IMG/VR virus record: IMGVR_UViG_3300042154_000876
Location: 1-64,000 of that record
Strand: one strand, 5' to 3'
DNA from: a virus
Length of the DNA: 64,000 nucleotides
A model generated the notes under the pieces. That model was given only the letters and a program-made list of their open reading frames with translations, was not told the DNA's origin and did not search any database. Numbering within the stretch: position 1 is the stretch's first letter; every line of letters begins with the position of its first letter. This document shows positions 6,023 through 28,953 of this stretch, one piece after another. The position numbers were made by a program, and so were the translations under genes.

Positions 6023-9000
6023 GTGAGCAAGCTAATCGATCAATTTGACAGCAACTTCGAGAACGAAGGGGGAATCCGCCACGCTATCGTTGACATCATT
6101 GAGTCACGTCGCGCTGAGATCCCTGCTATCCGTATGGTTGAAGAGGAAACTCTTTTCCAGGTTGCTGAACGTGCGTTAGAGTCAAACACTGATCTTGAGC
6201 CAGATGTTCGCTACTTTGCAGCACTTCGCGAAGTAACCAACTTCATTACGTTTGCTACAGAAGGCGCGATCTCGGACATTGTTACCAAGCACGCTGACCT
6301 ACTACCTGCTAGCCACCCAAACTCAAAAGAGTCGGCAGTTATGACTGCTTCGGCTCAGCGTATGCTACGCGCAGAGTGGCTTGCAGCTGACCTACGCATC
6401 ACCGACGAGAACGTTCGCTCTATTGTTGCAGCTGTTTACGCAAGCAACCCACTTTCCGTTGACTACGCCTACCACCTATCACGCCTAGAGAGCCTAGAAG
6501 AAGGTCAGGTTCCTGCTGACCTACTAATCCAGCCTCTACTTGCTTTTGGTGACCCATACGCAGGAAAGAACAGCTTCTGGCACCGTTCGATGCGTGCTAA
6601 GAAGCAGCGTCGTGACGATGAGGGTCAGTTTGCTGAAATGGGTGGCGGCTACCGCTTCTACGTTAGGGACCTACGCGGTCGCGTATTCTCTGTTGTTGGT
6701 AAGGTCGCTGGTATCCCAGAAAACGACCCTCTAGGCATTGACATTGAAGTTATCGGCGTTGAGGGTATCCGTGACGGCATTTACACCATTCCTGCCGCCG
6801 CTGGCCACTCCTTCAAGGCTATTCTTCCGGAGCACGCTGTATCTAAGCGTATTCGTATTTCTGGCGACAACCTAAACGCTATTGACCTATCTTCACTAAC
6901 TCGTAAAGAACTTCCTACTAGCTGGTTTGCAACCAAGGGCTCAAACGACAAAACTGACCTCGACAACAAGGTTAAGGCTGACCGTTTCTTCGCCACTGGT
7001 GACGGCTACATTGCTAACCTATACAACAAGCCTGACGAAGAGCTAGGAAAGCGTATCGCTGAAGCTCAGAACAAGTTTGGCGCTCTTGTAGTGAGCGACC
7101 AGGGTACCGACACCCTAAACCCAGACAAGCCTGTCTACGAACTTATCTCCACCAAGCGCGGACAGCCAGAAGTTGTTGGCTATTCTCAGGACTGGGCCGC
7201 CCTACAAAAGTTTGCGTCTGACGAAGACGAAAACTACCCAGAGGCCGAGAATGAGCCTCTTGCAGTTGAAGAAAGTGCCGCCAAGAAGCCTAAAGAGGCT
7301 CCTGCAGCAGCTCCGGTCGCACCGGAGAGCATGGACGAACTTGTTCCTGACCTACCTTCCTACAACCCTTCAGAGAATGTGCCTGCTACTTGGTATGACA
7401 ATGGCGACAACACCTTCTACTCTATTGACGGTAAGTACGTGGCTAAGTTTGGGCCTACTGACATTGCTGCAGATTACGTCTACTCCTATGACCCATCATC
7501 CGGTCAGGAAGGCCTGCTCCCTACGGGCGCAACCGTTAGTGATGCATTTGCTATCTATAACACCGACAACGGCTCTGCTGTTGGAGGAGTGTCTTTCGAC
7601 TGGAATGGCGTATCTGACGCCATTGACTCTGTTGACCAGGTCGAGGAAATGGCCTCACCTACCAAGCTTGACCCTGAGAACCTAGACCCAGACCGCGCCA
7701 AGTACATCGAACCGGATGCCAATGTCGGTGGAAGAGCCGGAGCAAACGACCCTATATCAGATGCACAGAAGCGCAGCATTTATGCCGCTATTGGTAAGCA
7801 CGAGGTAGCTGGCGGTATCGCTGACATCTGGGATGAAATGGTTGCAAATGACTGGCAGGGATATACCTTCGCTAATGCTATGACCTTGCTCATCAAAATC
7901 AACGAATCTCCTGAACGTCCAGGCGGTTGGGTTAAGCCTGCTCAGATCTACCACCGCAAAGCAATGCGTGACTCTCTTAGAAACCGAGATGTTCCAGAAG
8001 AAGCTAAGAAGATTCTTCTAGAGAGCTACAAAAGCATGGGCGAAGCTGAGATTAAGGCCCAGATTACTCTAGTAAACACCTTCCCGGCCATCACTCCAGA
8101 TCCTAGAGCAACGCTGGACGGAGACCGCAAGCCTATTGTGGCCCCAGTTAAATACGAGCCCGGAACTGTTAACGCCGAGACAGCAAGGATTCCTAAACTT
8201 CAGCCGGCAAATGCTTACCCTAACAAGTACCCACCGCGTGCCCAGGGCGTCGACCGAGACGGTAAGGCTTTCTATCCTCTACTAAACGACTTAAAGGGTG
8301 CCTTCAGCTCTAAGAAGGTTTCGGAAGACATGGTCATTCTATTTGATGACATGCTTACCCGTCCTTCTGTCTATAGCTACAAAGACTACGGCGCGTTTAT
8401 GGATGTCCTAAACAAGCTAGAACCTACTGAAAAGAAACTAGCAACGACCGCTACCCGCGCCCTGGTTGACACCATGATTGGAATGTCTAAGGACGTACCA
8501 GGTGACCTACAGGAGAAGCTAAAGGGCCGTCGTATGATGGACCATGATGAGATCAACGCTCTCATCACTGAGCTAGTTCCTTACGTACCAGAATACGAGA
8601 AGATTGCTGGTCGTGCAAAGACAGCACAAGAAACAGCTGAGTCGAAGAACCTATCCTCGGCTACTCCTAAGTATCTCGGAACAGACCTAACTGCTGCGCA
8701 GTCGGCACCTAAGCCTATGCAGCTAGTTATGCTTGAGTCCTTGATTGAAAACAAAGACTTCTCTGACCCTGCAGCTAAAAAAGATCTAGACACTCTTATT
8801 GCAGAGCACCGCACTATGCCGTATCCTCTGATTCAGAGCTACATCAAAGAGTTCCAGCAGCTACCATATAAGGCTCAGTTTCAGCCTAATATGCTGCACA
8901 CCACTATCTCTAGAGAAGATGGTGGACCTACCCCACGTATGCTACGTTCCCTGGAGCGTTCACGTATCAAGGGTCTTATTGGAGACGAGGCTTGGAACGA

Positions 9001-12000
9001 GATCACCAAGAACGTTCCTACAATGCTTGGCCAGGATGTTGCCACTAGGTACATAATTTCCGCTAAGGATCTAGAAGACAAGTATGACGACGCAGTCCTA
9101 GCTCGAAGCATCGAAAACGGTTACGAGATCAATGGCCTACGCGTTCCTGCTAAGTCTACTGTAACTATTCCAGAGAACTATACCCCCTCTAAGCCTGGAG
9201 TTTGGCTAGGAAGCACCGAAGACGAGATTAATGCTCAGCTTGACCTATACGGAGCTACCAAGGCTGACTCTGCACCTAGCAGTGCCATGCTTAACGCTCT
9301 TAAGGGCCTAAACTCTGTTCTTAAGATCAGACAGTACGAGTCTACCCTTGAGGCCAACGACCTTGACGACTTCCTTCAGAGAGAAGTTCTTCGTGCTGAC
9401 CTAACACGTACCCGCCGTGCATTGTCGGGCGTTGCAGCGCAGCTTGCTGATCTGCTAGAGTCTAGCCCTAGCACTGCTGTAAAAGCCGACTCTGCCAAGA
9501 TCCTCCGAGGAGCTATCGAAGGTCTTACAGACCTACGCTCTGTTCTAAACCTAAGACGCACCAACGTGCTTACCAAGAAGGAAGTAGACAAGCGTCTATC
9601 CGACATAGCGATCGCTATTCTTCCTGGAGACGGATCGCCTAGCCCACTGGGCACCCTAAAGAACAAGACCCCGGAGGCCTTGGAAGTTCTAGCCCGTGCT
9701 CAGGCGGCAGTTGGATCTCTTATTGGCCTATACAAGCAGGGTGGATCTGCTCCGATAGACCAAGACGCTGTTGAAGAGTCTTCGTCCAGTAGAAAGCCTT
9801 CTATGAAGTTCTTCTACCCACCTACGTTTGCTGGCGAGGGCCTTGACCCACTACGCGGTATGAGCAACTACAACGATGTTATCCAGTTCCTAAAGAACAA
9901 CGACATCTATGTTCTCGATCTTGAAACAACTGGACTAACTGATCTAGATGACTTTGAAATCAAGAATGATCCTATCCAGATCGCTGTTACCAAAATCTCT
10001 GGCCTACAGGCTGTAGACTCTTTCACCACCTACATCAACCCTCAGTCTAAGATCAGTTCTTATACCCTAAAGAACGTTGGAGACGGTAAGGGTGGACGTG
10101 TCACCCAGGAGTTCCTATCTGGCTTCCCTACTAAGCGAGACACTATGGCTCAGCTTAAAGAGTTCATTCCAAATGGCGCTATTATTGCTGGACACAACTC
10201 GACTTTGTTCGACATGGAAGTTATCAACCGCACTATTGCTGAAGCTGGTCTAGAACCTCTAGAGCCTTCAGGCATGATTGATACTCTTGGTTTCGCTCGC
10301 TACATCATGCCTGAGTGGACGCCAGAGAACCCTGACGCTCCTTTCAAGATCAACGCCCGCGGTGAGCAGACCAAGTCCTTCTCTCTTGAAGCTTTGGTCA
10401 CCTACTTCGGTCTATCGAACAACGGCCGTCACGAAGCTGACGCCGACGTTAGCTCGACCGTTGAAGTATTCCAGAAGATGCTTGACCGAGCCTCTAGAGG
10501 TCTTGCTGTAGGCGGACGAGAGTTTAGCTACGACGCTTCTGACAACGACTGGAACTACGACGCCTATGTAGCCGCTGAAGAAGCATATAAGCAGGCATCT
10601 AGCGAGTACATCCTTGGCCGTGTTGGCGACATCCTATCCCTTGAGGGAATGAACCCTGAAGAGATTAACTCTCTCATTACCTCTATGATTAACAACATTC
10701 AATCTGGAGTAACCTCAGGGCAGGAACAGCCAAGAAGCGAAGCAAACGTCCCAGCAACTAACCCACTGCGGGACCTACCTGCTGGCTCTTACGTTCACGA
10801 CAACGCAACTGGCCGCGCTGGTATCTCTATGGGTATCGTTGGAAACCACGTTCTAGTTGACTTCCCTGCTGCCTCTATTCTGGCTAATGGGCTTCGCACG
10901 CTGGAGAAGGTTCTCCCGGAGTCCCTAGTTAACGCCACCCGCGACTTCCTAAGTGCTAACGGAGTCTATCTAGACTACGGCATGCAGGTAAAAAACCCAG
11001 ACCTACCTGGCGGCTACGGATATGTACTAAGCCTATCCGGCGACAAGGGTGGAAACATCTACGCCGGTTCTGCAGACTACGCAGCTCAGTTCCCAGCCAA
11101 GAGCCTAGAGGTGGTGCCTACAACTGTCGCAGACGATAAAGCCTCTGACAAGCAAGAGGCTCGAATCATCAACCTAGTTGATGAGGTAGTTTCTGCTGGA
11201 ATTATGGATAAGGCCATGGCCCTACCATTCCAGCGCGCCGCTGAGAACCACCTCTACGGTAAAAAGTCAGCTGGAGACGTTATTATGCGTCTTACCACGG
11301 CGCTAAACCAGTTTAGACAGCACGCTGCCAATAGCGACATCCAGGTTGAAGCCGGCGAGAATGCAGCCTCTCAGATCGAGGAAATGGCCGCGCCTAAGAA
11401 GCCAAAGGATACTAAAAAAATCGAGGACATCGAGTTTAGTAAGGCATTGGAGAAGGCGCTCAAGGAGCTTGACATACAGCCTACCCCTGAAGGCAGAAAC
11501 ATTATTGGTTCAGTTATCAATAACTTCTTCACCGCAGTTATGGCCCTTGCCGGTGTTGGTAAAACTACCAACCTACGCCTAACAGCTGAGGCTATTATGA
11601 GCCTCTTCCCTCAGATGAGAATCCTATACGCGGTATTCAACAAAGAAAACCAAATGGAAGCTTTGGAGAAGATGCCAGATAACACAGAGGCTAGAACCTC
11701 TGACTCTATCAGCGTTATGGCCAACGCCAACAATAAACTACGCGATAAGATGGACGCCTTATCTAAACAGGATGAACCTCACAACATGCCTGTTAACTTC
11801 TTCAGAGAAGCAGATATCGCTGATCTATTCGGTGTAAAGGATGTCACCCTATCTACAGGAAAAGATGTACCTCGCGAGCGCGTAGCCGGAATCGCATCTG
11901 CTGCCTTACGAGCATGGATTCTATCCGATTCTATGAAGATTGATGCCAGTACTATTGACGCAATCTCCAGCCAGTTGAGTGAGAAAGAGATGCCTCAGAC

Positions 12001-15000
12001 AGCCGAGGACTACCGACCATTTATCCGACTTGTTCAGATGATGTGGGACGATGTTATTTCTGACCACGACCAGGATCGACGCCAGCTAGTAGTCAACTTC
12101 AACCACCTATTCAAGAACTGGGCACTTACTCGCCCTGACCTGACTGAAGTAGATGGTTCTGGAAAGAGCATTCACGGTCTTAAAAATGTCCCTGACTTCC
12201 TTTTCCTAGACGAAGCTCAGGATATTAACCCAGTATTCCGAAAAGTGATCGAAGACCAGTATACCCTTCACAAAAACGGTATTGTTATGATTGCTGTTGG
12301 CGACAATAACCAGGCTATCTTTGGATTCCGCGGAGCAGAAGACGCTCTGAATATTGTAAAGCGAGACCTAACGCTACCTCTAACTAAGAGCTACCGAACT
12401 GGTCAGACCGTTCTAGATGCCGCTGCTAACAAGCTGCTAGCGATGCTAGGAGAGTCGTTAAGACTACAAGGTAAGGATGGTAACGGCACTAAGCTTGTTG
12501 ACAATATGTCGCGAGAGAGGATCGATCTAGCCCTATCTCGAGGAACCGCCGCGATTCTAAAAGAAGCGATTGTGGTCGAGGAGATGTTTGAGGGAGGTAG
12601 AATCGCTACCACCCTGAACTTCAAGCAAGAGCTACTAAACATGCTTAAAGCGATGACTTACCTACAGCGCGTGGACTACGTCAACTATGCCAACGCTGAG
12701 GCACGTAAGAATGATCCAAATGCCGCGCCGATATTGCCACCTAAAAGACCTACAATACCTGGGGCATTGCTGGGCCTAAACTGGGAAACCATGTATGAGC
12801 TTCTGTCTGAAGGTAAGGGTGACCAATCTATTCAGCAGATTTGGAATGTTATCCGCGGTCACGCTAGCAAAAACAAAATTAAAATCGGGCCAGCAATGTC
12901 TGACCTACTGAACAACATTGTTCCTAACCTTCGAGTAGTTAATCACGAGTTCCACCTTCCAGCCCAGCTAGATCCGATCGGGTCTCTCGGTGGAGGATTG
13001 GACTACGAGATTACAAAGGATAAGATTATTATCCGAGACGACCCATCCGCGGGCTTTAATGCTCGTAAGACGGCCATTAGCGGTGTCTACAATAACCGCA
13101 AGGTTCTCGAGGACTACGGGTTCTGGAACCCTAGCAAGGATCAGGCAACTGGACGATACGGTGGATTTGAGTGGGAAATCAACCTATATGACGATGGGCG
13201 TGATCAGTTGCAGGACCTTGTCAAGGGTCTTCGCGGTGAGGACGCCATGTTCCGCATTATGACTGGTCACACCTCAAAGGGTCTGGAAGCCGATAACGTC
13301 AAGATTCTAGATGACTGGCTAGACCTAACGCCGTTCCTACCTGGTGGAGATGCTGAAAAGCAGAACGAACTGCTAGAACTGTTCCGCTCGCGTGGTCCAG
13401 ACTTTGATCTTATGGAAGAGATCCGCTTGATGTATGTAGTCACTACTCGACCACGCACTGAACTTGATTTAGGTGGTTTGAAGTGGTTAAACAATCACTC
13501 ACCTGAGCAACTTAAGGCTGCTGTTGATGAGATCCAAAAGCGACTAGCTATGGGATTCGGCGCAGTTGAGGAGGGCGTAGAGGTTAAGTCTCCAGAAGAG
13601 ATTGAAGCCATCAAGAACCGACCAACTGGCGAAGATCTTTCTGGTCTACCTCCACGCACCGACTGGGAGGCAGAAAAAGCAGCAAAAGAGGAAAATAGTT
13701 GGAGGCTCAAGAACACTGAGGAGAGAACTAAGGAAGAGATTGGAGAAATCCCTAGGGATGGAAATCTTCCACTCAAGCCACGCTCCCGCGACAACGCTGA
13801 ACTAGCCAAGTTGAAGGAAGAAAGGCGAGAGCTCGTCAGTAAGATTGCTACCGCTAAGAGTAAGGGCAAGGAGCCTAGCAAGGCCACCGAGCAAAAGTTA
13901 GCGGATGTAAATCAGAAGATTTCTGACATTGAGAATGCTGACAGTGTTGAAGAGTTTTCATCTAAAAAACGTCCAAGCTCTCCTAACTACCAGGATGAGT
14001 TTGATCGAAAGGTTGATGGTCTAAAGGCCGCTATTGCAACCGCTAAGGACATTCTAAACCTTGTGCCTGAAGACCGAACCGGAGACTTCAAGGGCTATGC
14101 TGACACCAACATCGAGGAAACTATCGCTGGACTACAAGAGGACCTAAATGCTCTGCTTGACAACCCAGACATGCTGGAGCGTGATGACGAGGAAGACTAC
14201 CGCATTGCCGAGCGTCTACTGGCTAAGCTGAATGCAGATAAGATGGCTAAACTAGACATGGGCGATCTGATGGATGCTCGTCGCATTGTGAAGAACAAGA
14301 GCGACATCACCGGAACTGATCAGAGCTTTGTCTATGGCACTACCCCACCTGTGTACCTCAACCGAGTAATGCTAGACGCACTAGAGAAGATGAAGGACCA
14401 CCTGTATCGTAAGCTGAAGCACGACGAGAAGCTAGACTTCGCTCCTTATGTTTCGGACCAGGTCGAAGAGTCATCTTCTCCGGTAGAGAATATCTCTCCA
14501 GAGATGGAAAAGAAGCTCTACAACATTGTTGAAGAGGCTGCTAAGTTCTACAGCGACCGCTTGATGAACTTCAATGACCCAGGTGCGACCGAGGCAAAGA
14601 AGTACGTTGTATCGCGAGGATTCGGTGCTGCCAACGCCGAGACCTTTAAGATTGGATACTCTTCGAAGAACTGGGCTGACCTATATCAGCACCTACGTCG
14701 CAAGGGATTCTCTGAAGAAGAGATCTTAGCCTCGGGACTAGTCAACAGAAGCGAAAACAACGGACGACTATTTGATGCCTTGCGCAACAGACTAGTCTTC
14801 CCCGTTAGCAACGACAAGGGCCAAGTGGTTGGTTTTGTTGGACGCTCGATTGACCCTGAAGAGCCAATCCGCTACATGAGAACCAAGGGTACCCCGATCT
14901 TCCAGAAGTCGAGCACCTTGTTTGGTCTAGATCAGGCTAGGGATGCAATCGCTGAGTCAGGCGAGATGGTTGTTGTTGAAGGTCAGTTTGACGTTCTAGC

Positions 15001-15514: not shown

Positions 15515-15564
15515 CCCCTCAGGTTTATTGGTATACTTGTAAAAGACTAATCAATCGCGATAGT

Positions 15565-15619
15565 TACCCCGTTAATTTGACAACTGCTAATTGACGGGGT
15601 ATTATCAAGGTGTTACGTT
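15565..15619 (+). promoter_or_regulatory. Tandem sigmaA-like promoters overlapped by a 13-bp inverted repeat
   Basis: TTGACA (15577-82) -17 nt- TATTAT (15600-05), and TTGACG (15591-96) -17 nt- TACGTT (15614-19). Inverted repeat TACCCCGTTAATT (15565-77) / AATTGACGGGGTA (15589-601). Confidence 0.7.
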
Positions 15620-15634
15620 TCTATAAGGACCAGT

Positions 15635-15898
15635 ATGAAAATCTTTGTTGACACCCCCGAGGGCGGAAGCCTCGTTGAGATTGAAGTCTCCACACTAGAA
15701 GATGACAGGCTAAACACGCTTGCCGCATCTGGATCTAAAGAAGCGCGCGACGAGGTTAAAAAGCGTACCGGTATGGATCCATATAAGCCTGTTTCTGAGC
15801 ACACACCCGAAGACGTCGAATACTACATGGAGTGGTTAAAAAATAACGACTCTGAAAAATACAATAAAATTGTAGGTAGCGATAAGGACGTTGAGTAG
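15635..15898 (+). CDS. Small acidic protein, paralog of the next gene
   Basis: 87 aa with an AAGGA RBS. Shares GG..L.D..LN.L...G..EAR.....RTG.DP.K......PED......W...N..EK..K with 15903..16187. Confidence 0.75.
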   Translation: MKIFVDTPEGGSLVEIEVSTLEDDRLNTLAASGSKEARDEVKKRTGMDPYKPVSEHTPEDVEYYMEWLKNNDSEKYNKIVGSDKDVE

Positions 15899-15902
15899 GA
15901 CT

Positions 15903-16187
15903 ATGGAAGACAACTACGAAGAATACCAAGTAGACATGCATGTCATCACTGCTAGTGGTGGCAAGGATTTGAAGTTCCAGCTTAAGGACCTTACCGACGA
16001 GGAGCTTAATCAGCTCTATGAAGAGACTGGACTAGAAGAAGCCCGCCTCGCTTACCGCGAGCGTACCGGTGATGATCCAGCTAAAAACCTATGGATCTAT
16101 GGACCAGAAGACTTTGCGTGGTTCCAGGACTGGTGTGACCGCAACCCAGAAAAGTTTGAGAAGTTGCGAGCCCAGTATGACGTTTAG
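15903..16187 (+). CDS. Small acidic protein, paralog of the previous gene
   Basis: Likely ATG at 15903 (MEDNYEEY); the ORF track uses TTG 15891. Aligns with the upstream ORF. Its stop overlaps the start of giant B. Confidence 0.75.
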   Translation: MEDNYEEYQVDMHVITASGGKDLKFQLKDLTDEELNQLYEETGLEEARLAYRERTGDDPAKNLWIYGPEDFAWFQDWCDRNPEKFEKLRAQYDV

Positions 16188-22100: not shown

Positions 22101-25100
22101 CCTAAAGACGATTGACCCGCGCAACCCGTCTACGGCTAAACAACACGGTGCAGTTCGTAAAGAAGGCTTTGGAGAATACCTAGACGATCTAGGGCTTTCC
22201 CGTGACCACCAAAATGCACTGTTCGACCAGATTAAGCAAATGACTCGTGGTGAAGCCGCCAGGTTTATCAGCACTTTCATCGAAGCCAATCCGCTACCTA
22301 AGCCTAGCGCTAAGCCTTCCATTCAAAATAGAGTACTAGATCTGAATCAGGTCACTAAAAACATCAAGAACCTTGAAAGACTTAAGTCTCAACCGCTTCC
22401 TTCCGCTCTTAGGGATATGGGCACCGTCCCGACCGATACTGAAGAAAAAATACAACACTTTAACAGGGAATTCTCTGACTTCCTAAAGAAAAAGTACCCG
22501 GACCTAACTCTTGGTGAAATCTGGTCATCTAGAAACAGCAATATCGATGTCGAGAAAGATTTTAATTACTTCTCTGATTTATATCAAAAAACTATGTCTC
22601 TGCCCGATAGTAAGGTTTTTGGTATTGGTAACGCCACTATAACCGCAAAAGACGGCATCCTAAGCAAGCGAGACTTGGCAATAGTGTCTAATGCCTTAGA
22701 AGTACTACAAGAGAGATTCTCTCTAGGCGAGACCCCTATTGATGTCCGCTATATGCCTCAAGAAGAATTAGACCGTCTCGCTGAAAAGAAGAATGTAACA
22801 GGGTCTGCATACATCGATGAAGACGGTGCGCACATAATTATTTCTGAGCGGACTCTTGGTGTCTATGAGAAAGACGGTAGGAGCGGTAAGACTGGGTCAG
22901 TGTCCGCTCACTTGGCTACTGTGATCCATGAGTACGGTCACCTAGTTCATGCACTACTACTAGGGTCTAATTTCACAGAAAAAGAAAAAGCAGACCTGGC
23001 TAAAGAGTTCCAACGTAGATTCAAAAAAACTAGGGTCACTGATTACGGCGAAACTAGTACTGCTGAAAAGTTTGCCGAACTGTTCTATGACATGGAATAC
23101 AGCAGAATCGAAGGAACTGAACCTGCAGTTCCAGAGTTTAGCGAGTTTATGGAGTCCATTAAGGGTCGGAAGGCTGCTATTAAGCCTTCCCTGCTTAACA
23201 GGATGGGGATCAAGAAGCCTCAGGCTCGACAAATGCCCCCTGAGAACACCAAGCCAGAGTTTGATGGAGCCACCAAGCTTTCTGGTGCTAACCTAGCCGC
23301 GTTTGAGGGATCCTCAGACAGCCTGCGCGGTAGTGACCAAGAGGCTGGCTACATCCCGGACCCTAGTGATCAAAAAGCTTTTAATGAGTTTAGACTTCAG
23401 ATAAGTCTTAACCCTGGCGATCTAGTGTCTGAGGCGCAAGCGCGTATTAGATTTAAGAAGGAAATCGAGAAGGCTAAAAAAGACGCCCGACGCTACGAAG
23501 TACTTAAAGTTGAAGGCACAAACTCCTACATCCGCTACAAGAACGGAGACGCTTCTCCAGAAGCCATCCAGCAGACGATTGACCAGCTGCGTGACCTGGA
23601 AGACTTCAACGTTGCTGGCGGCATTTCTCAGGTTGTAACCTTAGCCAAGCGCGAAACCTTCTCTGTTGGAAGACTATTTGCCACAACGCAGGGGACCGAA
23701 GAGGAGATCCATGGATACTCTCTTCTAGATTCGGATAAGGGTATTGGTCACATTGTTGTTGACCCTGACTTAGTCTCCGAGTCCCCTGGCTCTGTACCTG
23801 GAATCGCTGTAGGACAATACTACGCTAATGGTGGCGTTGACGCTCAGAATATGTTGAAACGCACCTTGGTGCACGAGTATGCGCACAACTGGGCTAAAGT
23901 GATTCTAGGACACCGCCAACAAGACAGCGCAAGATTTGATGAGTTTGTTCGCAGTGTAGTTCAGAGAATCCAAACTTCGGGTGGGAGAAGTGTCCACCCA
24001 ATCTCGGAGATTGCCGAGGGTGGAGACGGTGAAAGCTTCGCTGAGTTCTTTACGGCCGCCTTCTTCCAGATTGTTGAAGGCCGCATGCTCCCTACTAAGG
24101 GATCTCCGCTTGATCAGTTTATTCAGTTCTTTGCTAAATATGCTGGAGCCAACGTTGAGCCAATCATTAAGAACATCAGCCCTATCGTTCAGGTTGAAGA
24201 GTCGTCTTCTGGCGGACAACGACTAAAGTTCCCTAAGAACCATGAGGGAGCTGGGTCAGAGAATGTCTACCTAGAGTACAACCGACGCAGAGAGTTCTAC
24301 CGAAATGGGCTAGATCCTTACGGACGCCCACTAAGCGATGCCCGTGCGGCAATGATTCGCGAATACAGCAGCTACATCGATAAACTAGAGTCTGCGTACC
24401 AGTCCACCATGCGCGCTGAAGACTTCGACGTTATGACTTCAGCTATGGCGGCCCTAAAACGAGTCTATGATTCGATGTTCTTTGCCTACGCTAAGAATAA
24501 CTCCAGATTCAATGTAGACACTATTGGTGAGAACATTGAAGCTAATGAACAAAGCTTCCGTAGCTGGACAGCACCTACTTCCCCTCTATTCTTACCTGAA
24601 TCTGAGGGACCTTTCAAGAATGAGATAACCACCGGACGCTATACAGACGTCGACGGTATTTCCTATCCGCTTGTATACATCTCTTCGACTAAGGCAGATG
24701 GTCGCACCTATACAGCTACAGTTGCTCTTGACCCAGAGAACACCGACTTTGACCTTGCCACTGCCAATATGGACACCCTAATTGAGGCATCTGTTGGAAA
24801 GATGATAACCATATCGGACAAAGAAAAGACTAGCCAGATTCTTGACTACATCTCGGTTGACGGTGACCTACGTCACAGGGGCATAGCCACCTCTCTTCTA
24901 TCCTTCACTAGAAGCAACACAACTAAGAAGGTTTTGCACAAGGGTAAGTCTGCCCCGGATGTTTCAGCTTGGGCCCAGTCGGTAGATAGTTCTGAAAAGT
25001 CCTACGAATCCGCTCCTCGTGCGTTTGACGATGCTTCTCACGTTGCTCGACACAACCGCAACGCTATCAACCTAATCTCTGATCGCGAGCCGCCTCAGGA

Positions 25101-28100
25101 GATCGACACGTCTTCAGAGACCTTAGAGGCCGAGGCGCTACACTATGCGGGGGAAAACTACGGAAACTTCTATCACCCTAACTTGCAGGACTACATGTCT
25201 AAGCAGGGTGGCGGACTTGGTGTCTACAACTCTACAGTTGGTTATGTCTCAGCTGAGACTCTCAGTTCGATGCGCGGCAATGAGCCTAAAGATCCGGACA
25301 GCGTGGCTCGCAAGGTTGAAGACCTACAGGACGGCGACGGATTCGACCAACCGGTAAGCGTCGTCTATAACCCTCGCACCGGTGAAGCTTATGTAGCCGA
25401 CGGTAACCACCGCGTCCAGGCTTCGCTAGACGCTGGCGTTGCTTATGTACCTACAAGAGTCTTTATCATGGATGTTCCTCCTGCACAGGAGAACCCACAG
25501 ATTAAGAAGTTGGAACGCGATGGCGGTCTACCTCTACCTGAGGGCGCAGATGAAGTTCACCCATACTTTGTCTTCAATAAAGAAGATCTAGTTAATGGAA
25601 AAGACCTATCTGACCCTAGCGTTGTTGAAGAAATGGCTTCTAACGTTGTTGTTTGGTCTGGTCGCGGTAAGGCTTCCGAGCGCAACCGCTCCGGAAGGTA
25701 TGACCCAGACCCTAACAACATCTTTGAGCAGCTTGCCCCAGGCGAATACGTTATGGACAAGAAGACCAAAAAGATTTATCAGGTATACAGCCAAGACTTT
25801 ACTACCGAAGTAGGCCAAGACGGTGTAGAAAGAGCCGTATTCACCGGGAAGATTGTTGTCCGAGAGTTTGAAGGCAACTTAGATAACCTATCTAGAGTAA
25901 GAATCTCGACGCAGTTTGGCGATAACAATATCCGCTACGCTCAGGGTGGACAATCCTCTGCCGACGATTCATATAATGACGCTCGCTCATATATTGACGA
26001 GATTCGCGACCCAGCGGACTTTGAGAATGTTACTGACTCGTTTATAAAGCTCAGTGACCAGCCTATCCTTATCAGCGATACGATGTACGTTGTTCAGACC
26101 GAGACCGGTATCAAGGGTCGAATCTCTAAGTTTGTCTCTCCTGGAGTAGTTAGACTTGATGTTCTAAAGGGATATAACGAGGACGGCGAACCTCTCTATG
26201 ATCAGATAGAGTCCCCGATAACCCAGCTTCTACCTATCCAGAACCAGCAGCAGGTCCCTAATGGACAGCCTGCTATGGAGCATGCCCCTGATATGCAAAT
26301 ATCTAACTCTACCTGGGACTCGATCAACACCTTGTCCTCTACCCTGTTGAAGTGGGGCTACCTATCAGAAGATAAGTACAAGGCTATTCAGACCCTAGTT
26401 CACGGTAAGTTTATTACCCAAAGCGGTGCTCTGGACCTTGAGCGTTCGCTCAGAAACCACGACGTAGTTAGACGAGCAAAGATTCGTGGCGTCGCAGTGA
26501 AGTCACCTGCCACTGGAGAACCTGTTGCACAGGCGCCTGTACAGCAAGCTGCCCCGTCTGCCCCTGCCGCGCCTTCAGTTGGCCAAGGCGAGGCCGGAGG
26601 TCGCTCATTTGAGCAGCTCCTAGAAATGAAGCGTGCTCGTAAGAAGGCAGATGCCGGGCTATCTGTAGAAGAGTTTGCATCTCCTGTCACAAAGATTAAG
26701 GTAACTAAGAACCCTCCTACCCAAAGCCAGATTCTAGAAGTAGAGCGTCTTCTTTCTGAAGACGGTGCGGTAACCCCGCAGCGTGCATTTGATATTCTAT
26801 CTTCACTACCTACTCTAAATGCAGAAGCCACCGAAGCTGTACTAGAAGAGATCCGAGCAGATGTTCTCAACAAGAGGATTTCTAAGGATGAAAGCATCAC
26901 TGGTCTTGTAGTTCCTAAGGGCTTTAATAGATCCAAAATCTCTGGATACCAGCCAGCCGTTGAGGAATCATCTACCGGCTTTGAGATCGATAGAGATGCG
27001 GAAGAGCCTAATGAAGACGGAGAGGTTAGCCCAGGAGCGAAGCCAGAAGAAGAAGGTCCTAAGATGTCGTTCAATGCTCAACAGAAGTCAGCTATTGACT
27101 CTGTAGTTAGCAGTGAAGGCGGCCTATTCTTTATCACTGGTGGTGCTGGTACTGGTAAGACCACTATTAAGAAGGAAATCGACAAGCGCGAGAAGGCCAA
27201 AAATAGAAGGACTATGACCATTGCCCCTACGGGTAAGGCAGCCCTTCAGGCAGAGGGAGCTACCATCCACTCTACGTTCAAGATTCCAGTAGGCCCTTTA
27301 ACCGATTTTAGCCCGTCCGAGACTTACAACAAGAATATGGGTACTGCCAAGGGCCGTAAATCTATGGCTGCTTTGCGCACGGCAGACACCATCTTCATTG
27401 ATGAAGTTTCTATGGTTCGAGCAGATCTGATGGATGCTATGGACAGGATGCTTAGGGTTGTCAAGGGAAACATGTCTGAGCCTTTTGGTGGAGCTAAGAT
27501 TGTTATGCTTGGAGACTTGGCTCAGCTTCCTCCAGTAGGTATTGACTCTAGCCCTGAAAACCAGGGACCTCGCCAGCGATTCCAAGAGACTTATGCTGAT
27601 GACTACTTCCTAAGTGCTAACTCATGGGCATCTTCGGCGTTTGAGGTTCACAACTTGACTGAGTCTATGCGTCAAAGCGCAGAGGATGATGCCTGGTTCG
27701 AGCAGTTCCTAAGGGAGAGGGCTCGATTCGCTGAGGTGACTCAGGAAGACATGGAGAAGCTGTGGGAGATTAGCGAAAAAAACCGCAAGCGTGATGCTGA
27801 AGAGGGTGTCACATCCGAGCCTATCCACCTGGTGTCTACAAATGCTGCCGCAGACGAGATCAACAAGAAAAAGTTTGCTGAACTTGAGGGTGAAGCAGTT
27901 AAATTTACTGCTACCATTGACGCTCCAGAAGGCTCTGACATTAAGCCGTTTGTTCGAAATGGCGGTCTACCTAAAGAGGAAATGGAATACAAGATCGGTG
28001 AGCCGGTAATGTTTATCAAGAACGATGACGCACAGCAGCGCAAATCTGCTGGAGGCAACCTTCCGAACGAGTCCAGATGGGTAAACGGAAGTCAGGGCGT

Positions 28101-28953
28101 AATCACAAGATTTGAATATGCTGAAGGCGAAGATGGCCAGACCCCTATTGCTATCTATGTAAAGATTGGCGACAAGGAGCACCGAGTAGTTCCTGCCACA
28201 TGGGAAGATGTAGAATACGGCGTATCTACCAAGATTGAAGAAGAGAAGAACATCGTTGAGGGACCTACTCAAGAAGTTTTGTCTACCTATACTCAGATTC
28301 CTTTGATGCCAGGATGGGCTATGACTACCCACAAGTCTCAGGGAGCCACTATGGACTCAGCTGTGGTCGACTATTCGATTAAGTACTCTGATAATGGAGA
28401 TATTCTCACTCAAAATAGCCCTTTTGCTGCTGGACAGGTCTATGTAGCACTTAGCCGACTACGTAGCTCGAATGGTCTCTACTTGACTAGGAAGCTAAAT
28501 AAAAATGACTTTATTAGAATCGAACGTAGCGTTACCGATTTCTTCAAGAATGTTGATGCTCAGACAGCCGCTAACCAGGTCTCCGAAAGTTCCGCTCCAA
28601 AGAAGTTTGACCCGCTAAAAGGATACATTTCTGAAGTAGATCTTGCTTCAGCCCTAGACAGCGGGGAACTCACCGGACCAGCTGGCCAGAACCTTACGGA
28701 CTACCAGTCCACCGCTATCAAGAACAAACTCCGTCTGATGCGTGAAAATCCTAATAGTGCTGATCGTTATAGAGAAGAAATTGCTAAGCTAATGAACTCT
28801 TGGTTTGGTGTCGAGGAGCCTGGAGAAGAGATCCCTGCTGTAGCTGCCCCCATTGAGATCCGCATGGACAACTTCCGCGACCCGTCGGAACGTCAGGCCA
28901 CAATAGACCTACTTACTAAGAGTGGTATTCCCTACACTTTGAAGTACGATTAA
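16177..28953 (+). CDS. Giant polyvalent protein B (~4258 aa): N-terminal module, KOW/SH3-like repeats with Thr-rich linkers, DEDDh exonuclease, two HEXXH zincins, GNAT, ParB, PIF1-like helicase
   Basis: Uninterrupted ORF. ATG 16177 (MTFSPLFF), coupled to the upstream stop, is preferred over 16069. Motifs are listed in the domain features. Confidence 0.85.
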   Translation: MTFSPLFFEDPEEPIVAAALKNGKEWGYWADMQLRDPGGERGGWFIEMGGLNLFNGMGKDGKVRAYKGKYIGPSPLGQGYGRFLVEGGDGVDPGIYHVNVSNIDSVKGVLSEEYLRSLGRDVPAQKEGIVDLSKTRIDPITEQDLQDANIEPDKPKNLKKAANDRGQSAKKLKDLKDGDILYDEGNKRFGEVVSTVDKDGNFSPWVKWEDNQISQIPNADPETETAVWAAPAPEVDESAAPKKTVKGRDLKVGDVIRAWDENRTITAIEPGRGGERYFIFDTPDEGEDGPDGKFININEDVELGREEAPVAPAAPVAAEKTKSNKVSASEVKKGDSVVINGETYTVSKKSNKKADGVVIGHKIEFRAEDGSTFEEEFLSDDTLDIPAAETATKEEKKTPRGVLTSFVKNMQPGDVLIAGKDDKRQEVLFVSAEPIPPVDNNDIRKRYNITVQRADGGLETIAVDATNGIPQLAETNAKGKTEKVNRKDQLKVVPSAPATTTTKTTRTTTKTAGDEAGTTTTTTPRVRAPEVIPTTPMSTNPGDTGEVVRGVNYEIMPDGRIKFSRGRLKKGSRSYDLITKVLPGEITRSGNGKAFAFFEKPEGGDYGNWFVRFEPIKDSKKDLAKQFLDSLRAGMAKEKVESSEETGSSFSGAKNTKGSITDAASYEVDENGTVKISGLTEEQVDLVVQAMYTVQGTTPLDRPGSVSTKVDSDKDEDRAAVLKAVSDALGGTPAATTTTTTTTPDFDSLPKTKADPEAARKAGFTVDNVKPVDIQVGDYIISPVGYWTKVVGEPSIIPDPRNPGEIAWAIPTENYKGERFTQDGLGDLNLRIDRVRGPNHVDTPETADEAFDKESAPFPMDTLRDLKEGIYAKVDGMWKKITKVGKPQIDPSVDTESVVIEFEDGTKKRVDERDGLTLVRKVPEGEATSTATTTTEGLTTDQRLAKLLFLVKGSGSEDAAWNASIMGDARRSLEAAGIDENDFLDYAEKSGASDLRQPDLDKLIEKYKADKGSTTTTATTTEESDKPTDEQRKTIDDLIAQIGDETNFTSKIVTAMLDSLTKESADMAIDMLKAAIANTTAPTTTTAPAQSVFTPGQIDSVNRRINLLTPEQQAKVKEAMESATPKTAKDIMSKIINTLDNAEIISRIRKGMPVDDILARRKTDTVGANLLFDLDRSPKEIAQRLATYKPTVNLDGTPIADAQQTTTTVSGDDTKSVSSLISDVIDSLAKDLQTKFGALKYRYSSKTPQNAEQAEKDHEIYLEYLSTVVPAVMQALKERLDSQTAAGNPDAQKNYDDAVSKLKQELWGQNRGAVYTSEAEKLVGSDRTKEMSDEANKALNDLLAGVKKPEKQVTTETTTKDTFGKIGTSGNLTGNVDYSIDKFGQIALTNAPEDFDARMAESRGLIIVTDNGKKSIVLTKNNDENRAAALNLIKERLEGPAPVTTKVETQTEVAQDVVTGQERPEGGVSKKISELNVGDRLYDEETESMATVVGVYEDPDRAGRIVLTIRFDDGREDSASYKKSYVVEAYPSPEAPAATTTTAEDVVGGEDADTSKTEAEVVEDSQVIVEQGESTTAEPGSTVLEEPDAEAVEPVEPKRKPRGPRKPRKVNLSDVSDEEREAFIRIFDALENFNRVEEEYGGKKYDSKWYIDEKDRKFDNKDVEELASQNTKGIGEDLGIQLMDSTTDAYEPGAFSSTRQPTPGAFTGRVARMVEGKTKAETRNILKGLKVSWFDTETTGISNFDGDPTNNDVVQVGIVNTQNGEVLERLNIYINPGVEDGVRLGKWATNNLVKDAVGEDGQPILGPDGKPTTEPITNEWLSEQMSIADAVQQIMDFMGRDPILGGQNVPFDLQVLQRMLDKAGVRGYRIGGTIDSKDLSEEFLPKYNEYEGTDGPKRFDKERNKFVPTSSLGYVAEFLGFGTTRWHSADADAEDAWKLASATMDRAASEDPTGTSDLMNQSAMRSRYTERMAKFLKTIDPRNPSTAKQHGAVRKEGFGEYLDDLGLSRDHQNALFDQIKQMTRGEAARFISTFIEANPLPKPSAKPSIQNRVLDLNQVTKNIKNLERLKSQPLPSALRDMGTVPTDTEEKIQHFNREFSDFLKKKYPDLTLGEIWSSRNSNIDVEKDFNYFSDLYQKTMSLPDSKVFGIGNATITAKDGILSKRDLAIVSNALEVLQERFSLGETPIDVRYMPQEELDRLAEKKNVTGSAYIDEDGAHIIISERTLGVYEKDGRSGKTGSVSAHLATVIHEYGHLVHALLLGSNFTEKEKADLAKEFQRRFKKTRVTDYGETSTAEKFAELFYDMEYSRIEGTEPAVPEFSEFMESIKGRKAAIKPSLLNRMGIKKPQARQMPPENTKPEFDGATKLSGANLAAFEGSSDSLRGSDQEAGYIPDPSDQKAFNEFRLQISLNPGDLVSEAQARIRFKKEIEKAKKDARRYEVLKVEGTNSYIRYKNGDASPEAIQQTIDQLRDLEDFNVAGGISQVVTLAKRETFSVGRLFATTQGTEEEIHGYSLLDSDKGIGHIVVDPDLVSESPGSVPGIAVGQYYANGGVDAQNMLKRTLVHEYAHNWAKVILGHRQQDSARFDEFVRSVVQRIQTSGGRSVHPISEIAEGGDGESFAEFFTAAFFQIVEGRMLPTKGSPLDQFIQFFAKYAGANVEPIIKNISPIVQVEESSSGGQRLKFPKNHEGAGSENVYLEYNRRREFYRNGLDPYGRPLSDARAAMIREYSSYIDKLESAYQSTMRAEDFDVMTSAMAALKRVYDSMFFAYAKNNSRFNVDTIGENIEANEQSFRSWTAPTSPLFLPESEGPFKNEITTGRYTDVDGISYPLVYISSTKADGRTYTATVALDPENTDFDLATANMDTLIEASVGKMITISDKEKTSQILDYISVDGDLRHRGIATSLLSFTRSNTTKKVLHKGKSAPDVSAWAQSVDSSEKSYESAPRAFDDASHVARHNRNAINLISDREPPQEIDTSSETLEAEALHYAGENYGNFYHPNLQDYMSKQGGGLGVYNSTVGYVSAETLSSMRGNEPKDPDSVARKVEDLQDGDGFDQPVSVVYNPRTGEAYVADGNHRVQASLDAGVAYVPTRVFIMDVPPAQENPQIKKLERDGGLPLPEGADEVHPYFVFNKEDLVNGKDLSDPSVVEEMASNVVVWSGRGKASERNRSGRYDPDPNNIFEQLAPGEYVMDKKTKKIYQVYSQDFTTEVGQDGVERAVFTGKIVVREFEGNLDNLSRVRISTQFGDNNIRYAQGGQSSADDSYNDARSYIDEIRDPADFENVTDSFIKLSDQPILISDTMYVVQTETGIKGRISKFVSPGVVRLDVLKGYNEDGEPLYDQIESPITQLLPIQNQQQVPNGQPAMEHAPDMQISNSTWDSINTLSSTLLKWGYLSEDKYKAIQTLVHGKFITQSGALDLERSLRNHDVVRRAKIRGVAVKSPATGEPVAQAPVQQAAPSAPAAPSVGQGEAGGRSFEQLLEMKRARKKADAGLSVEEFASPVTKIKVTKNPPTQSQILEVERLLSEDGAVTPQRAFDILSSLPTLNAEATEAVLEEIRADVLNKRISKDESITGLVVPKGFNRSKISGYQPAVEESSTGFEIDRDAEEPNEDGEVSPGAKPEEEGPKMSFNAQQKSAIDSVVSSEGGLFFITGGAGTGKTTIKKEIDKREKAKNRRTMTIAPTGKAALQAEGATIHSTFKIPVGPLTDFSPSETYNKNMGTAKGRKSMAALRTADTIFIDEVSMVRADLMDAMDRMLRVVKGNMSEPFGGAKIVMLGDLAQLPPVGIDSSPENQGPRQRFQETYADDYFLSANSWASSAFEVHNLTESMRQSAEDDAWFEQFLRERARFAEVTQEDMEKLWEISEKNRKRDAEEGVTSEPIHLVSTNAAADEINKKKFAELEGEAVKFTATIDAPEGSDIKPFVRNGGLPKEEMEYKIGEPVMFIKNDDAQQRKSAGGNLPNESRWVNGSQGVITRFEYAEGEDGQTPIAIYVKIGDKEHRVVPATWEDVEYGVSTKIEEEKNIVEGPTQEVLSTYTQIPLMPGWAMTTHKSQGATMDSAVVDYSIKYSDNGDILTQNSPFAAGQVYVALSRLRSSNGLYLTRKLNKNDFIRIERSVTDFFKNVDAQTAANQVSESSAPKKFDPLKGYISEVDLASALDSGELTGPAGQNLTDYQSTAIKNKLRLMRENPNSADRYREEIAKLMNSWFGVEEPGEEIPAVAAPIEIRMDNFRDPSERQATIDLLTKSGIPYTLKYD
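21360..22010 (+). other. DEDDh exonuclease domain in giant B
   Basis: WFDTETTG (D at 21379), GQNVPFD, IDSK, WHSADADA. Confidence 0.85.
22700..23100 (+). other. Zincin-like metallopeptidase domain 1 in giant B
   Basis: TVIHEYGHLVH (H at 22927) followed by TDYGETSTAEKFAELF. Confidence 0.7.
23560..24070 (+). other. Zincin-like metallopeptidase domain 2 in giant B
   Basis: TLVHEYAHNW (H at 23872) followed by ESFAEFF. Confidence 0.65.
24690..24990 (+). other. GNAT acetyltransferase-like domain in giant B
   Basis: ILDYISVDGDLRHRGIATSLL matches the acetyl-CoA binding motif A (V..xxRxxGxA). Confidence 0.6.
25240..25475 (+). other. ParB/Srx-like domain in giant B
   Basis: GFDQPVSVVY..AYVADGNHRVQAS..GVAYVP, with DGNHR at 25399. 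Confidence 0.75.
27065..28500 (+). other. PIF1/RecD-like SF1B helicase domain in giant B
   Basis: ITGGAGTGKT, APTGKAA, TIHS, IDEVSM, GDLAQLPPV, LTESMRQ, QIPLMPGWAMTTHKSQG, GQVYVALSR. Confidence 0.9.

Follow-up and report, generated by a model that had tools for sequence, protein, structure and literature searches.

The window analysed here, a stretch of 64,000 nucleotides from an IMG/VR virus record (IMGVR_UViG_3300042154_000876), comes from an uncultured, actinophage-like phage and encodes two giant multi-enzyme proteins in its head module. Their genes sit between the portal gene and the genes for the protease and the major capsid protein (MCP), in this phage and in all relatives examined. 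The features of the two giants are as follows.

6023..15514, + strand: giant A, a polyvalent protein of 3163 aa with homologues
6023..7264, + strand: conserved N-terminal module of giant A (aa 1–414), present in all relatives
Giant A, aa 1297–1483: match to an RNase_T/DEDDh exonuclease domain
Giant A, aa 1828–2481: match to a UvrD helicase domain
Giant A, aa 2853–3072: match to a DnaG-type primase domain with Toprim
16069..28953, + strand: giant B, a polyvalent protein of 4294 aa with homologues
22366..23328, + strand: zincin Z1, candidate junction protease (giant B aa ~2100–2420; HEYGH at nt 22927–22941)
23326..24192, + strand: zincin Z2, candidate junction protease (giant B aa 2420–2708; HEYAH at nt 23872–23886)
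Giant B, aa 3668–3873: match to a PIF1 helicase domain

In giant A, the conserved N-terminal module is followed by further modules and then by the exonuclease, UvrD and primase. Giant B begins with an N-terminal module related to that of A, continues with a 1428-aa segment, an exonuclease with two HExxH zincins and a weakly supported GNAT domain, and ends with PIF1. A reading of the letters alone, made before this analysis and here called the sequence-only reading, had named these domains and also a ParB. Both RNase_T/DEDDh exonucleases, UvrD, the primase and PIF1 were recovered, GNAT weakly, and ParB found no match in Pfam or PHROGs. Many unrelated domains are thus strung on each chain (RNase_T twice, UvrD, DnaG/Toprim, PIF1 and two HExxH domains), as in polyvalent proteins, and the architecture is mosaic: relatives have gained, lost or moved modules. 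Those for the primase and the exonuclease and the one of 98 aa, for instance, map elsewhere or in the other giant in relatives G003 and G004. The zincin-like MPTase domain PF18818, a hub domain of polyvalent proteins, is present in homologous giants; segments of the window's giants gave no match to it at E ≤ 1 and carry the other HExxH zincins instead. Since the proteins are mosaic, the C-termini of giants at 20 loci gave a poor global alignment. A homologue search with the primase module returned mostly cellular DnaG and nothing on the N-termini of stand-alone modules. One locus, L007, had the appearance of a giant split at one of the peptides described below; it differs from the otherwise identical L006 by a 126–127-bp deletion with a frameshift, which accounts for the apparent split.

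The core of the giant A N-terminal module is common to the N-terminus of giant B. Its AlphaFold2 model (pLDDT 66.6) consists of helices and small β-barrels. The module was considered as a protease and rejected, as it has no protease fold and no PDB match by profile or by Foldseek. It is probably a head-loading or anchoring domain.

A hexapeptide of the form [VI][EDS]E[SMFL][SA][SAT] occurs 13 times in the two giants, six times in A and seven times in B. The sequence-only reading had listed these copies and taken them for cleavage sites of a polyprotein, and its nucleotide positions are exact. The copies are as follows.

7265..7282, + strand: VEESAA, A aa 415, directly after the conserved N-terminal module
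7640..7657, + strand: VEEMAS, A aa 540
9770..9787, + strand: VEESSS, A aa 1250, before the exonuclease module
11375..11392, + strand: IEEMAA, A aa 1785, before the UvrD module
13946..13963, + strand: VEEFSS, A aa 2642
14462..14479, + strand: VEESSS, A aa 2814, before the primase module
16879..16896, + strand: VDESAA, B aa 271, directly after the N-terminal module
21163..21180, + strand: VEELAS, B aa 1699, before the exonuclease and zincin module
24193..24210, + strand: VEESSS, B aa 2709, in a disordered tail directly after zincin Z2
25624..25641, + strand: VEEMAS, B aa 3186
26665..26682, + strand: VEEFAS, B aa 3533
26959..26976, + strand: VEESST, B aa 3631, before the PIF1 module
28579..28596, + strand: VSESSA, B aa 4171, after the PIF1 module

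Division at these sites gives the fragment sizes already claimed from the letters, that is, about 125, 710, 535, 857, 172 and 350 aa from A and about 1428, 1010, 477, 347, 98, 540 and 124 aa from B.

The motif is far above chance and confined to the two giants. Whole-protein shuffles give 0.106 copies where 13 are observed, with a maximum of 3 in 2000 shuffles, and 0.028 where the strict core VEE[SMFL][SA][SAT] has 10. When blocks of 12 or 30 residues are shuffled, so that linker composition is kept, the expectation is still only 0.12–0.14, and the notion that acidic linkers rich in Ser and Ala throw up the motif by chance is refuted by these figures and by the conservation of its positions in homologues, even though hydrophobicity in the flanks is a little below average. 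A scan of all six frames of the 75.6-kb contig found one further copy within an open reading frame, VSELSA at aa 42 of the 1500-aa protease protein, and one minus-strand copy in a frame matching no ORF of at least 100 aa. The tail and replication proteins of the window contain no copy, as had been noticed at first reading.

Codon by codon, the copies differ synonymously, again as first noticed: Val is GTT, GTC or GTA, Glu is GAA or GAG, and Ser is AGT, TCT, TCA or TCG. Because the codons vary in this way, selection acts at the level of the peptide, and a repeat at the DNA or RNA level is ruled out. Internal translation starts were rejected as well: the first position is encoded by GTT, GTC, GTA or ATC and never by GTG, so that none of the 13 copies has a start codon there, and Met stands at the fourth position in only three.

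The motif lies in linkers, as the sequence-only reading had proposed. BLAST alignments against whole homologous giants end within 25 aa of a site more often than expected, both in giant A (29% versus 9.4% in the null, p ~0.0035) and in giant B (19% versus 7.6%, p ~0.05). In an AlphaFold2 model the second zincin is folded until about nine residues before site 2709, and the motif is in the tail, with pLDDT of 26–37. A hydrophobicity proxy for linkers gives a weak, marginal signal in the window (p = 0.056). As in viral polyproteins, a conserved short peptide stands at most boundaries between functional units. There are also module boundaries that are free of the motif, within the 1428-aa segment of B and at some joints in G003 and G004.

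The main new result comes from the relatives. On comparison of their sequences, the joints are conserved while the peptide that marks them differs from lineage to lineage, and it does so in concert throughout both giants. At its six joints, giant A has VEE[SM].. in homologues P0002 and P0003, [VIS]QEMA[TS] in P0004, I/VE[ED]MA[ST] in P0005, IEDM[AS] in P0006, P0008 and P0009, and SEER.. in P0007. Homologues of giant B follow the same lineage pattern; P0027, for example, has SEER, as does P0007. Most relatives have Met as the fourth residue, with Ala-Ser/Thr after it. In both A and B, in the relatives as in the window, a motif comes next after the conserved N-terminal module, and motifs are kept at homologous joints and beside modules that have moved between giants.

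De novo k-mer discovery on five IMG/VR relatives extended the series of lineage variants (QEMA, IEDMA, SEER, PxFMxF, GFxQxPG and PSQNRE). It returned GF.Q.PG in 23 copies (GFAQ 15 times versus 0.047 expected), P[SN]QNR(E) in 12 with two looser variants besides, P.[FLA]M.[FY] in eight and QEM[AS] in seven. Each discovered peptide is present in both giants of its lineage; protein C, MCP and the portal and tail proteins of the five relatives lack it. When the pattern of each lineage is matched against the giants of every lineage, the resulting cross-matrix is essentially diagonal. In G004, a complete 135-kb genome, all 9 exact matches to its motif fall within the giants, as do 16 of 17 in G001, and synonymous codon variation is seen in the relatives' motifs too. 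In G005, which has HExxH, no motif was detected by k-mer and reduced-alphabet searches, a weak negative. In DSL-LC01 and Pumpernickel the giants lack HExxH, and no recurring motif was found in them; the latter absence is again a weak negative, as the reduced-alphabet search missed even the motif of the window. K-mer discovery on 10-kb flanks of 80 loci was too insensitive, there being too few sites per fragment. Concerted change by lineage points to one lineage-specific factor that recognises the peptide.

Two candidates for such a factor are encoded nearby, the head protease and the zincins. The head genes adjoining giant B are as follows.

29047..33549, + strand: protein C, head-maturation protein of 1500 aa
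31516..31839, + strand: weak match to the S78 prohead protease, protein C aa 824–931
33681..35720, + strand: MCP, 679 aa, with a scaffold-like N-terminal region of ~230–270 aa
34482..34496, + strand: AITAGA, an assemblin-like site at MCP aa 268, in an invariant stretch where the conserved capsid body begins

These two proteins carry a motif of their own. The pattern [LIVM][TVA]A[ASG][GASP] occurs nine times in protein C versus 0.63 expected and four times in MCP versus 0.5, and is not enriched in the giants (2 versus 0.95 and 1 versus 1.0 expected). Most of the assemblin-like sites of protein C keep their alignment position across all six lineages. Sites of the assemblin/HK97 type, which belong to S78 proteases, have an aliphatic residue, any residue and Ala, followed by residues of the Ser/Ala/Gly type, and VEE[SMFL][SA][SAT] does not fit them. 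Conversely, the VEE-type motif is absent from MCP, and protein C has no copy of the core, the VSELSA at aa 42 being a loose match. The S78 region itself is on average ~50–75% identical between lineages whose giant motifs are as unrelated as VEESSS, GFAQEPG and PSQNRE. Since these lineages have conserved the S78 protease, whose own substrates carry another, likewise conserved motif (hydrophobic-T/V-A-A/S-G), that protease is an unlikely reader of the giant motif.

The zincins of giant B suit the comparative data better. In Z2, residues H183, E184, H187, E236 and E240 are invariant in 14 sequences, which provides an HExxH and a downstream Glu as third zinc ligand. With VIA-align, the Z2 model matches anthrax lethal factor (1yqy) with Z 10.5, rmsd 4.9 and 207 aligned residues, and the Pro-Pro endopeptidase PPEP-3 (9g0j) with Z 9.8, rmsd 4.1 and 176 aligned; PPEP-2 has Z 9.0, and M1 aminopeptidases are close behind lethal factor at Z 9.3. 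Foldseek on the Z2 model gave E 8e-3 and probability 0.98. The model suggests a gluzincin fold nearest to anthrax lethal factor and the PPEPs, which are sequence-specific endopeptidases. Profile matches of the zincin region are weak (SprT-like, Reprolysin_3 and M50B, E 0.008–0.1); the M34 profile found no match, and Z2 has no significant sequence or Pfam match.

Homologues of Z1 and Z2 are found in every lineage that has a motif of the Glu/Met type and are absent from the GF.Q.PG and PSQNRE lineages, which carry ArdC-N and MPTase-PolyVal zincins instead. A role for zincins would need different zincin families to serve different lineages. This association covers ~8 lineages, with uneven motif detection and kinship not controlled. 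In the AlphaFold2 model of Z2 with its C-terminal tail, the tail is disordered and the motif is not docked in the active site. Prediction of a complex of Z1–Z2 with zinc and a 40-aa VEE linker scored 0.00, which is no verdict and carries no weight either way.

We propose that VEE[S/M/F/L][S/A][S/A/T] is this lineage's junction signal between exchangeable enzyme modules of the two polyvalent proteins, and that one lineage-specific protein would read it. The most likely way of reading would be endoproteolytic cleavage, which we find plausible and which would yield the N-terminal loading module and single enzymes, namely the exonucleases, UvrD, primase, PIF1 and others, from giants that are presumably packaged. 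With less confidence, we suggest that the signal is read not by the conserved S78 protease, whose own code on capsid and scaffold appears to be a separate, assemblin-like one, but more likely by one of the intact HExxH gluzincins, of which giant B has two. If a zincin reads the signal, the cut would probably separate the second Glu from the variable fourth residue (P1' = M/S/F/L). Taken as a whole, a lineage-specific junction signal read by a cognate protein that probably cuts, with a zincin favoured, is the explanation we consider best, and we rate it somewhat better than even. The polyprotein proposed from the letters alone stands in so far as there is a peptide-level junction signal that changes as it would with a co-evolving protease; the enzyme of the T4/phiKZ type proposed with it is probably the wrong one.

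The peptide might instead remain uncut and act as a multivalent tag for docking or modification, by which the giants are organised or loaded as intact chains. Such a tag might bind the capsid interior, the scaffold or a loading module, or be the site of a phage modifying enzyme. Short linear motifs are typically found in disordered linkers, where they may just as well serve docking or modification, concerted change by lineage needs only a co-evolving partner and not a protease, and some polyvalent proteins, N4 vRNAP and ArdC among them, are transferred unprocessed (PMC5512222). However, positions between modules and right after the N-terminal loading module are those expected of release sites; intact zincins occur in the giants examined from motif-bearing lineages, whereas the two zincin-less giants examined show no recurring motif; and no candidate binding partner with lineage-specific variation was identified. 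We regard an uncut tag as rather unlikely.

The cleavage might also be assigned to the S78 prohead protease in the 29047–33549 protein, cutting the giants at V-E-E as T4 gp21, phiKZ gp175 and SPN3US gp245 cut internal head proteins. The giants are in the head module and adjoin the protease gene, the order of an aliphatic residue, any residue and Glu resembles the T4 rule (L/I-x-E), and many ejection proteins of giant phages share one motif at which the prohead protease cuts them (PMC10052503). Yet, setting aside the loose VSELSA, the giant motif is absent from capsid and protease/scaffold proteins in six genomes. That is, no single motif is common to the capsid, scaffold/protease and internal proteins in the window or its five relatives, as one is in T4 and phiKZ. 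Together with the conservation of the S78 region and of the assemblin-like sites described above, this makes the analogy with those phages, drawn by the sequence-only reading, quite improbable.

A third possibility is that the motif is a scar or a tool of module shuffling, either an old gene start (RBS plus Met-Ala-Ser/Thr) or microhomology for cassette exchange. The Met followed by Ala-Ser/Thr in most relatives does resemble a protein N-terminus, and modules have moved between giants and positions. Met is nonetheless present in only three of the 13 window copies and no Val position has a start codon; synonymous sites vary freely, so there is no conserved RNA signal or DNA microhomology; and scars would be expected to decay, not to give way to a new peptide at every joint in concert. 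This origin is very improbable.

Returning to a junction signal read by a cognate protein, we can tentatively extend it to two orthogonal proteolytic codes in one virion. An S78/assemblin code would serve the capsid, scaffold and the giants' N-terminal tags, and a cargo-embedded zincin with a private, fast-evolving code would release the replication and repair enzymes, peptide and protease co-evolving by lineage. We hold this to be possible, short of probable. If this is true, dsDNA phages would have a genuine strategy of polyprotein expression in which cassettes can be exchanged. Polyvalent proteins are widespread, both in phages and in conjugative elements, and the conversion of a chain of 3000–6000 residues into working enzymes in the infected cell is a prediction that has stood since 2017. 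The mapped peptide gives exact predicted cut sites and mature products for each enzyme, and its concerted change by lineage is a computational handle for finding the cognate protease. It also separates cargo processing from capsid maturation and would explain how cassettes are swapped without breaking the system. If confirmed, pairs of motif and protease would form a natural set of orthogonal sequence-specific proteases and linkers, and the virion-delivered enzymes of uncultured phages could be annotated directly from sequence.

Processed polyvalent phage proteins are not a new idea. Iyer, Burroughs, Anand, de Souza and Aravind (2017, PMC5512222) predicted processing by embedded zincins or assemblin-like peptidases, with the sites left undefined. 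The giants of the window resemble the proteins they described in being huge chains of unrelated DNA-processing and counter-defence domains, including exonuclease, SF1 helicases, primase and zincins (and, in relatives, ArdC-N, MPTase-PolyVal and ADP-ribosyltransferase), in their head-module genes and in extensive module shuffling. They differ in that the junction peptide is here mapped, lineage-specific, concerted and distinct from the capsid/scaffold motif, and in that the window's zincins are not PF18818, Z2 being modelled as an LF/PPEP-like gluzincin.

Cleavage of internal head proteins at a short motif is the work of gp21 in T4. In phiKZ, 201phi2-1 and SPN3US, gp175/gp245 likewise cut packaged head proteins at a short motif that recurs, in some cases at several sites, and prohead maturation in phages of the phiKZ type removes N-terminal targeting regions (PMC10052503, PMC5694885). 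Phages of the T4/phiKZ type use a single protease and a single motif for capsid, scaffold and internal proteins, and what results is mostly a propeptide and one mature protein. In contrast, the giant motif is absent from capsid and scaffold, varies while the head protease is conserved, and divides a chain into many enzymes.

The 3C sites of picornavirus-like polyproteins and pp220/pp62 of ASFV, a dsDNA virus, are similar in that the units of one ORF are separated by a short conserved peptide that evolves together with a protease of the virus. The hosts of those viruses are eukaryotes, and the replication or core-shell products are made in the cell, whereas here a tailed dsDNA phage would carry the chain as virion cargo, with its cleavage a prediction. 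Finally, the Z2 model probably shares its fold with the M34 gluzincins (anthrax lethal factor and PPEP-1/2/3) and, like them, has an HExxH with a downstream Glu; unlike them, Z2 is embedded in a 4294-aa phage protein.

The window covers 64 kb of a 75.6-kb viral contig. Since a 135-kb contig carries an identical giant A sequence, the full phage genome is probably about 135 kb. The structural module is of the siphovirus type, as follows.

2156-3934, portal
3948-6020, 690-aa ferritin/Dps-like fusion
6023-15514, giant A, 3163 aa
16069-28953, giant B, 4294 aa
29047-33549, 1500-aa protein with a weak S78 prohead-protease match (the protease protein)
33681-35720, capsid protein, 679 aa, with a scaffold-like N-terminal region
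after the capsid gene, adaptor, major tail protein, tape measure and tail proteins

The nearest capsid protein is that of Actinomycetia phage DSL-LC01 (67%), followed by those of Microbacterium phages (about 54-56% identity) and of 186-195-kb Arthrobacter phages (about 48-50%). The 690-aa product of the gene directly downstream of the portal gene has a ferritin/Dps-like domain (E 2.5e-13) together with DUF5824 and a stretch that resembles HiPIP very weakly; a HiPIP protein is annotated in the corresponding module of DSL-LC01. A 554-nt gap (15515-16068) separates the giants. In the relatives the gap is 370-800 nt, with none in the IMG/VR relative G001.

The sequence-only reading had reported 13 copies of a junction motif, [VI][EDS]E[SMFL][SA][SAT], in the two giants. 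All 13 are in place, and the fragment sizes, which derive from the motif positions, are borne out. Whole-protein shuffles give 0.106 expected copies, and the strict core, VEE[SMFL][SA][SAT], occurs 10 times against 0.028 expected. The motif is commoner than acidic, Ser/Ala-rich linkers predict, as shuffling in 12- or 30-residue blocks yields 0.12-0.14 copies and never more than 2. Scanning all six frames of the whole contig added two copies: one belongs to a real ORF (protease protein, residue 42), and the other falls in a frame without a matching ORF of 100 aa or longer. Because codons differ between copies, as had been stated, the Val codon is never GTG and Met occurs in only three of the 13, neither repetition at the DNA level nor internal starts account for the copies.

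By Pfam, four domains begin 40-50 residues after a copy of the motif, namely the exonuclease, UvrD and primase core of giant A, and PIF1, which has another copy downstream; the giant B exonuclease starts about 150 residues past its site. The domain placement proposed earlier thus holds for the exonucleases, UvrD, primase core and PIF1, with GNAT weak and the giant B ParB not detected by Pfam or PHROGs. When homologous giants were aligned by BLAST to a query that was not pre-cut, the alignment ends clustered within 25 residues of the window's motif sites. In both window giants, and in giant A of relatives G001, G003 and G004, a junction motif follows a conserved N-terminal module.

A related module opens both giants (6023-7264 and 16069-16878; core at about residues 171-276 of A and 50-165 of B) and is kept in all relatives. 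Its model, of helices and small beta-barrels, has no PDB match, and the module is a candidate head-loading domain. Residues 271-1698 of giant B (16879-21162; 1428 aa) have neither junction motif nor family match, and carry Thr-rich low-complexity runs (TTTT counted 14 times).

Homologues of giant A range in identity from 94% down to about 40%, and those of giant B from about 48% down to 29%. All six joints of A and most of those of B can be followed through the homologues, with variable and gappy flanks, and the joint peptide varies with lineage.

Joint peptides in homologous giants
P0002 and P0003, giant A: VEE[SM][SA][SAT]
P0004, giant A: [VIS]QEMA[TS]
P0005, giant A: I/VE[ED]MA[ST]
P0006, P0008 and P0009, giant A: IEDM[AS]
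P0007, giant A: SEER..
P0023, P0024 and P0026, giant B: VEE..
P0025, giant B: VE[QD]M
P0027, giant B: SEER

Since P0007 and P0027, both from contigs of about 136 kb, share SEER, the two giants of a lineage appear to change joint peptide together.

The complete portal-to-capsid region was compared for five IMG/VR relatives, G001-G005, with capsid proteins 60-70% identical to the window's, and each encodes two giants of up to 6256 aa. An unsupervised k-mer search gave a different top motif in each of G001-G004, and no convincing recurring motif in the giants of G005.

Top k-mer motifs in the giants of relatives
G001: GF.Q.PG, 23 copies (GFAQ 15 against 0.047 expected)
G002: P.[FLA]M.[FY], 8 copies
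G003: QEM[AS], 7 copies
G004: P[SN]QNR(E), 12 copies, and two looser variants

Each motif is present in both giants of its own genome and missing from that genome's protease, capsid, portal and tail proteins, and when the pattern of each lineage is scored on the giants of all lineages, the resulting matrix is essentially diagonal. In the complete 135-kb G004 genome, the giants contain all nine exact matches to back-translated PSQNRE (none in the control), and in G001 they contain 16 of 17 exact matches. In these lineages as well, copies differ in their Arg, Ser and Gly codons.

Between window and relatives, modules shift position and switch between the two giants. Giant B of G001 (L006:1-4872) carries an ADP-ribosyltransferase exoenzyme domain, a Tc-38-like ssDNA-binding domain and two ArdC-N/MPTase-PolyVal units, and so the cargo set differs strongly by lineage. 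The second giant of G004, of 6256 aa, is a single open frame (L087:11322 to L033:4628). The otherwise identical contigs L007 and L006 differ by a 126-127-bp deletion (about nt 2120-2250) that begins within a GFAQ junction codon run, with a frameshift that splits the giant; either an assembly variant or a genuine deletion may account for it.

A peptide that homologous joints retain, on which selection acts as protein sequence and which is exchanged jointly at 7-23 sites per genome is the signature of sites read by a single co-evolving factor. Evolution would leave the same pattern on a docking or modification tag. We regard cleavage as the most economical reading, and a plausible one, because the sites part whole enzyme modules, the first site trails the putative loading module and the giants contain peptidase domains of their own. 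The observation behind the polyprotein proposal is confirmed and considerably strengthened; the proposal itself finds partial support and is now sharply testable.

The proposed enzyme fares less well. By analogy with T4 and phiKZ, the S78 head protease was to cut the giants, and three results make it probably not the reader of their motif. First, the protease protein is conserved across lineages with unrelated giant motifs (on average about 50-75% identical across the S78 bins, and 89-97% immediately downstream of them). Second, the copy at residue 42 aside, the giant motif is missing from the capsid and protease proteins, the natural substrates of a head protease. Third, these proteins carry another motif, [LIVM][TVA]A[ASG][GASP], with nine copies in the protease protein (0.63 expected) and four in the capsid protein (0.5 expected); one of the latter, AITAGA, lies in an invariant stretch at the start of the conserved capsid body. 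Across the six lineages, most of the nine protease-protein sites keep their place in the alignment. The giants have this motif at background level only, and a looser form occurs once near the N-terminus of many of them (MTASA at residue 107 of giant A, 6341-6355; IVAAA at residue 51 of giant B, 16219-16233). Assemblins cut by the rule aliphatic-x-Ala, then Ser, which the second motif resembles. It is consistent with a conserved code read by a conserved protease, and is probably the S78 protease's own; the giants' private code would therefore need another reader.

Giant B has two HExxH domains, Z1 and Z2. In Z2, the HExxH and downstream Glu residues are invariant across 14 sequences. Its model is a confident gluzincin (pLDDT 74, pTM 0.77), with the VEESSS joint predicted in a disordered tail nine residues beyond the fold. 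The best structural match is anthrax lethal factor (Z 10.5, rmsd 4.9, 207 aligned), followed by the Pro-Pro endopeptidases PPEP-3 (Z 9.8) and PPEP-2 (Z 9.0), with M1 aminopeptidases close behind. Every lineage with a Glu/Met-type motif has Z1/Z2 homologues (these are the window, P0023-P0031, G002 and G003); G001, G004 and G005 have none. G001 and G004 have ArdC-N plus MPTase-PolyVal zincins, and G004 additionally an M78-like domain; in DSL-LC01 and Pumpernickel, HExxH is missing from the giants altogether, and no recurring motif was found in them. This distribution agrees with embedded zincins as readers of the private code, different motif classes being served by different zincin families, a tentative proposal that is less likely than not given the small sample and uneven motif detection.

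Polyvalent proteins were defined by Iyer et al. 2017 (PMC5512222), who proposed embedded zincin-like or assemblin-like peptidases as processors, acting before packaging, inside the head or after injection, and gave no sites. In the literature searched, we found no report of a junction peptide in such proteins. In phiKZ-like phages, prohead proteases cleave the internal proteins at a single motif common to the capsid proteins (PMC10052503, PMC5694885), and those of T4-like phages do likewise; the enzyme that cuts these giants, if any, is probably not the one this analogy implies.
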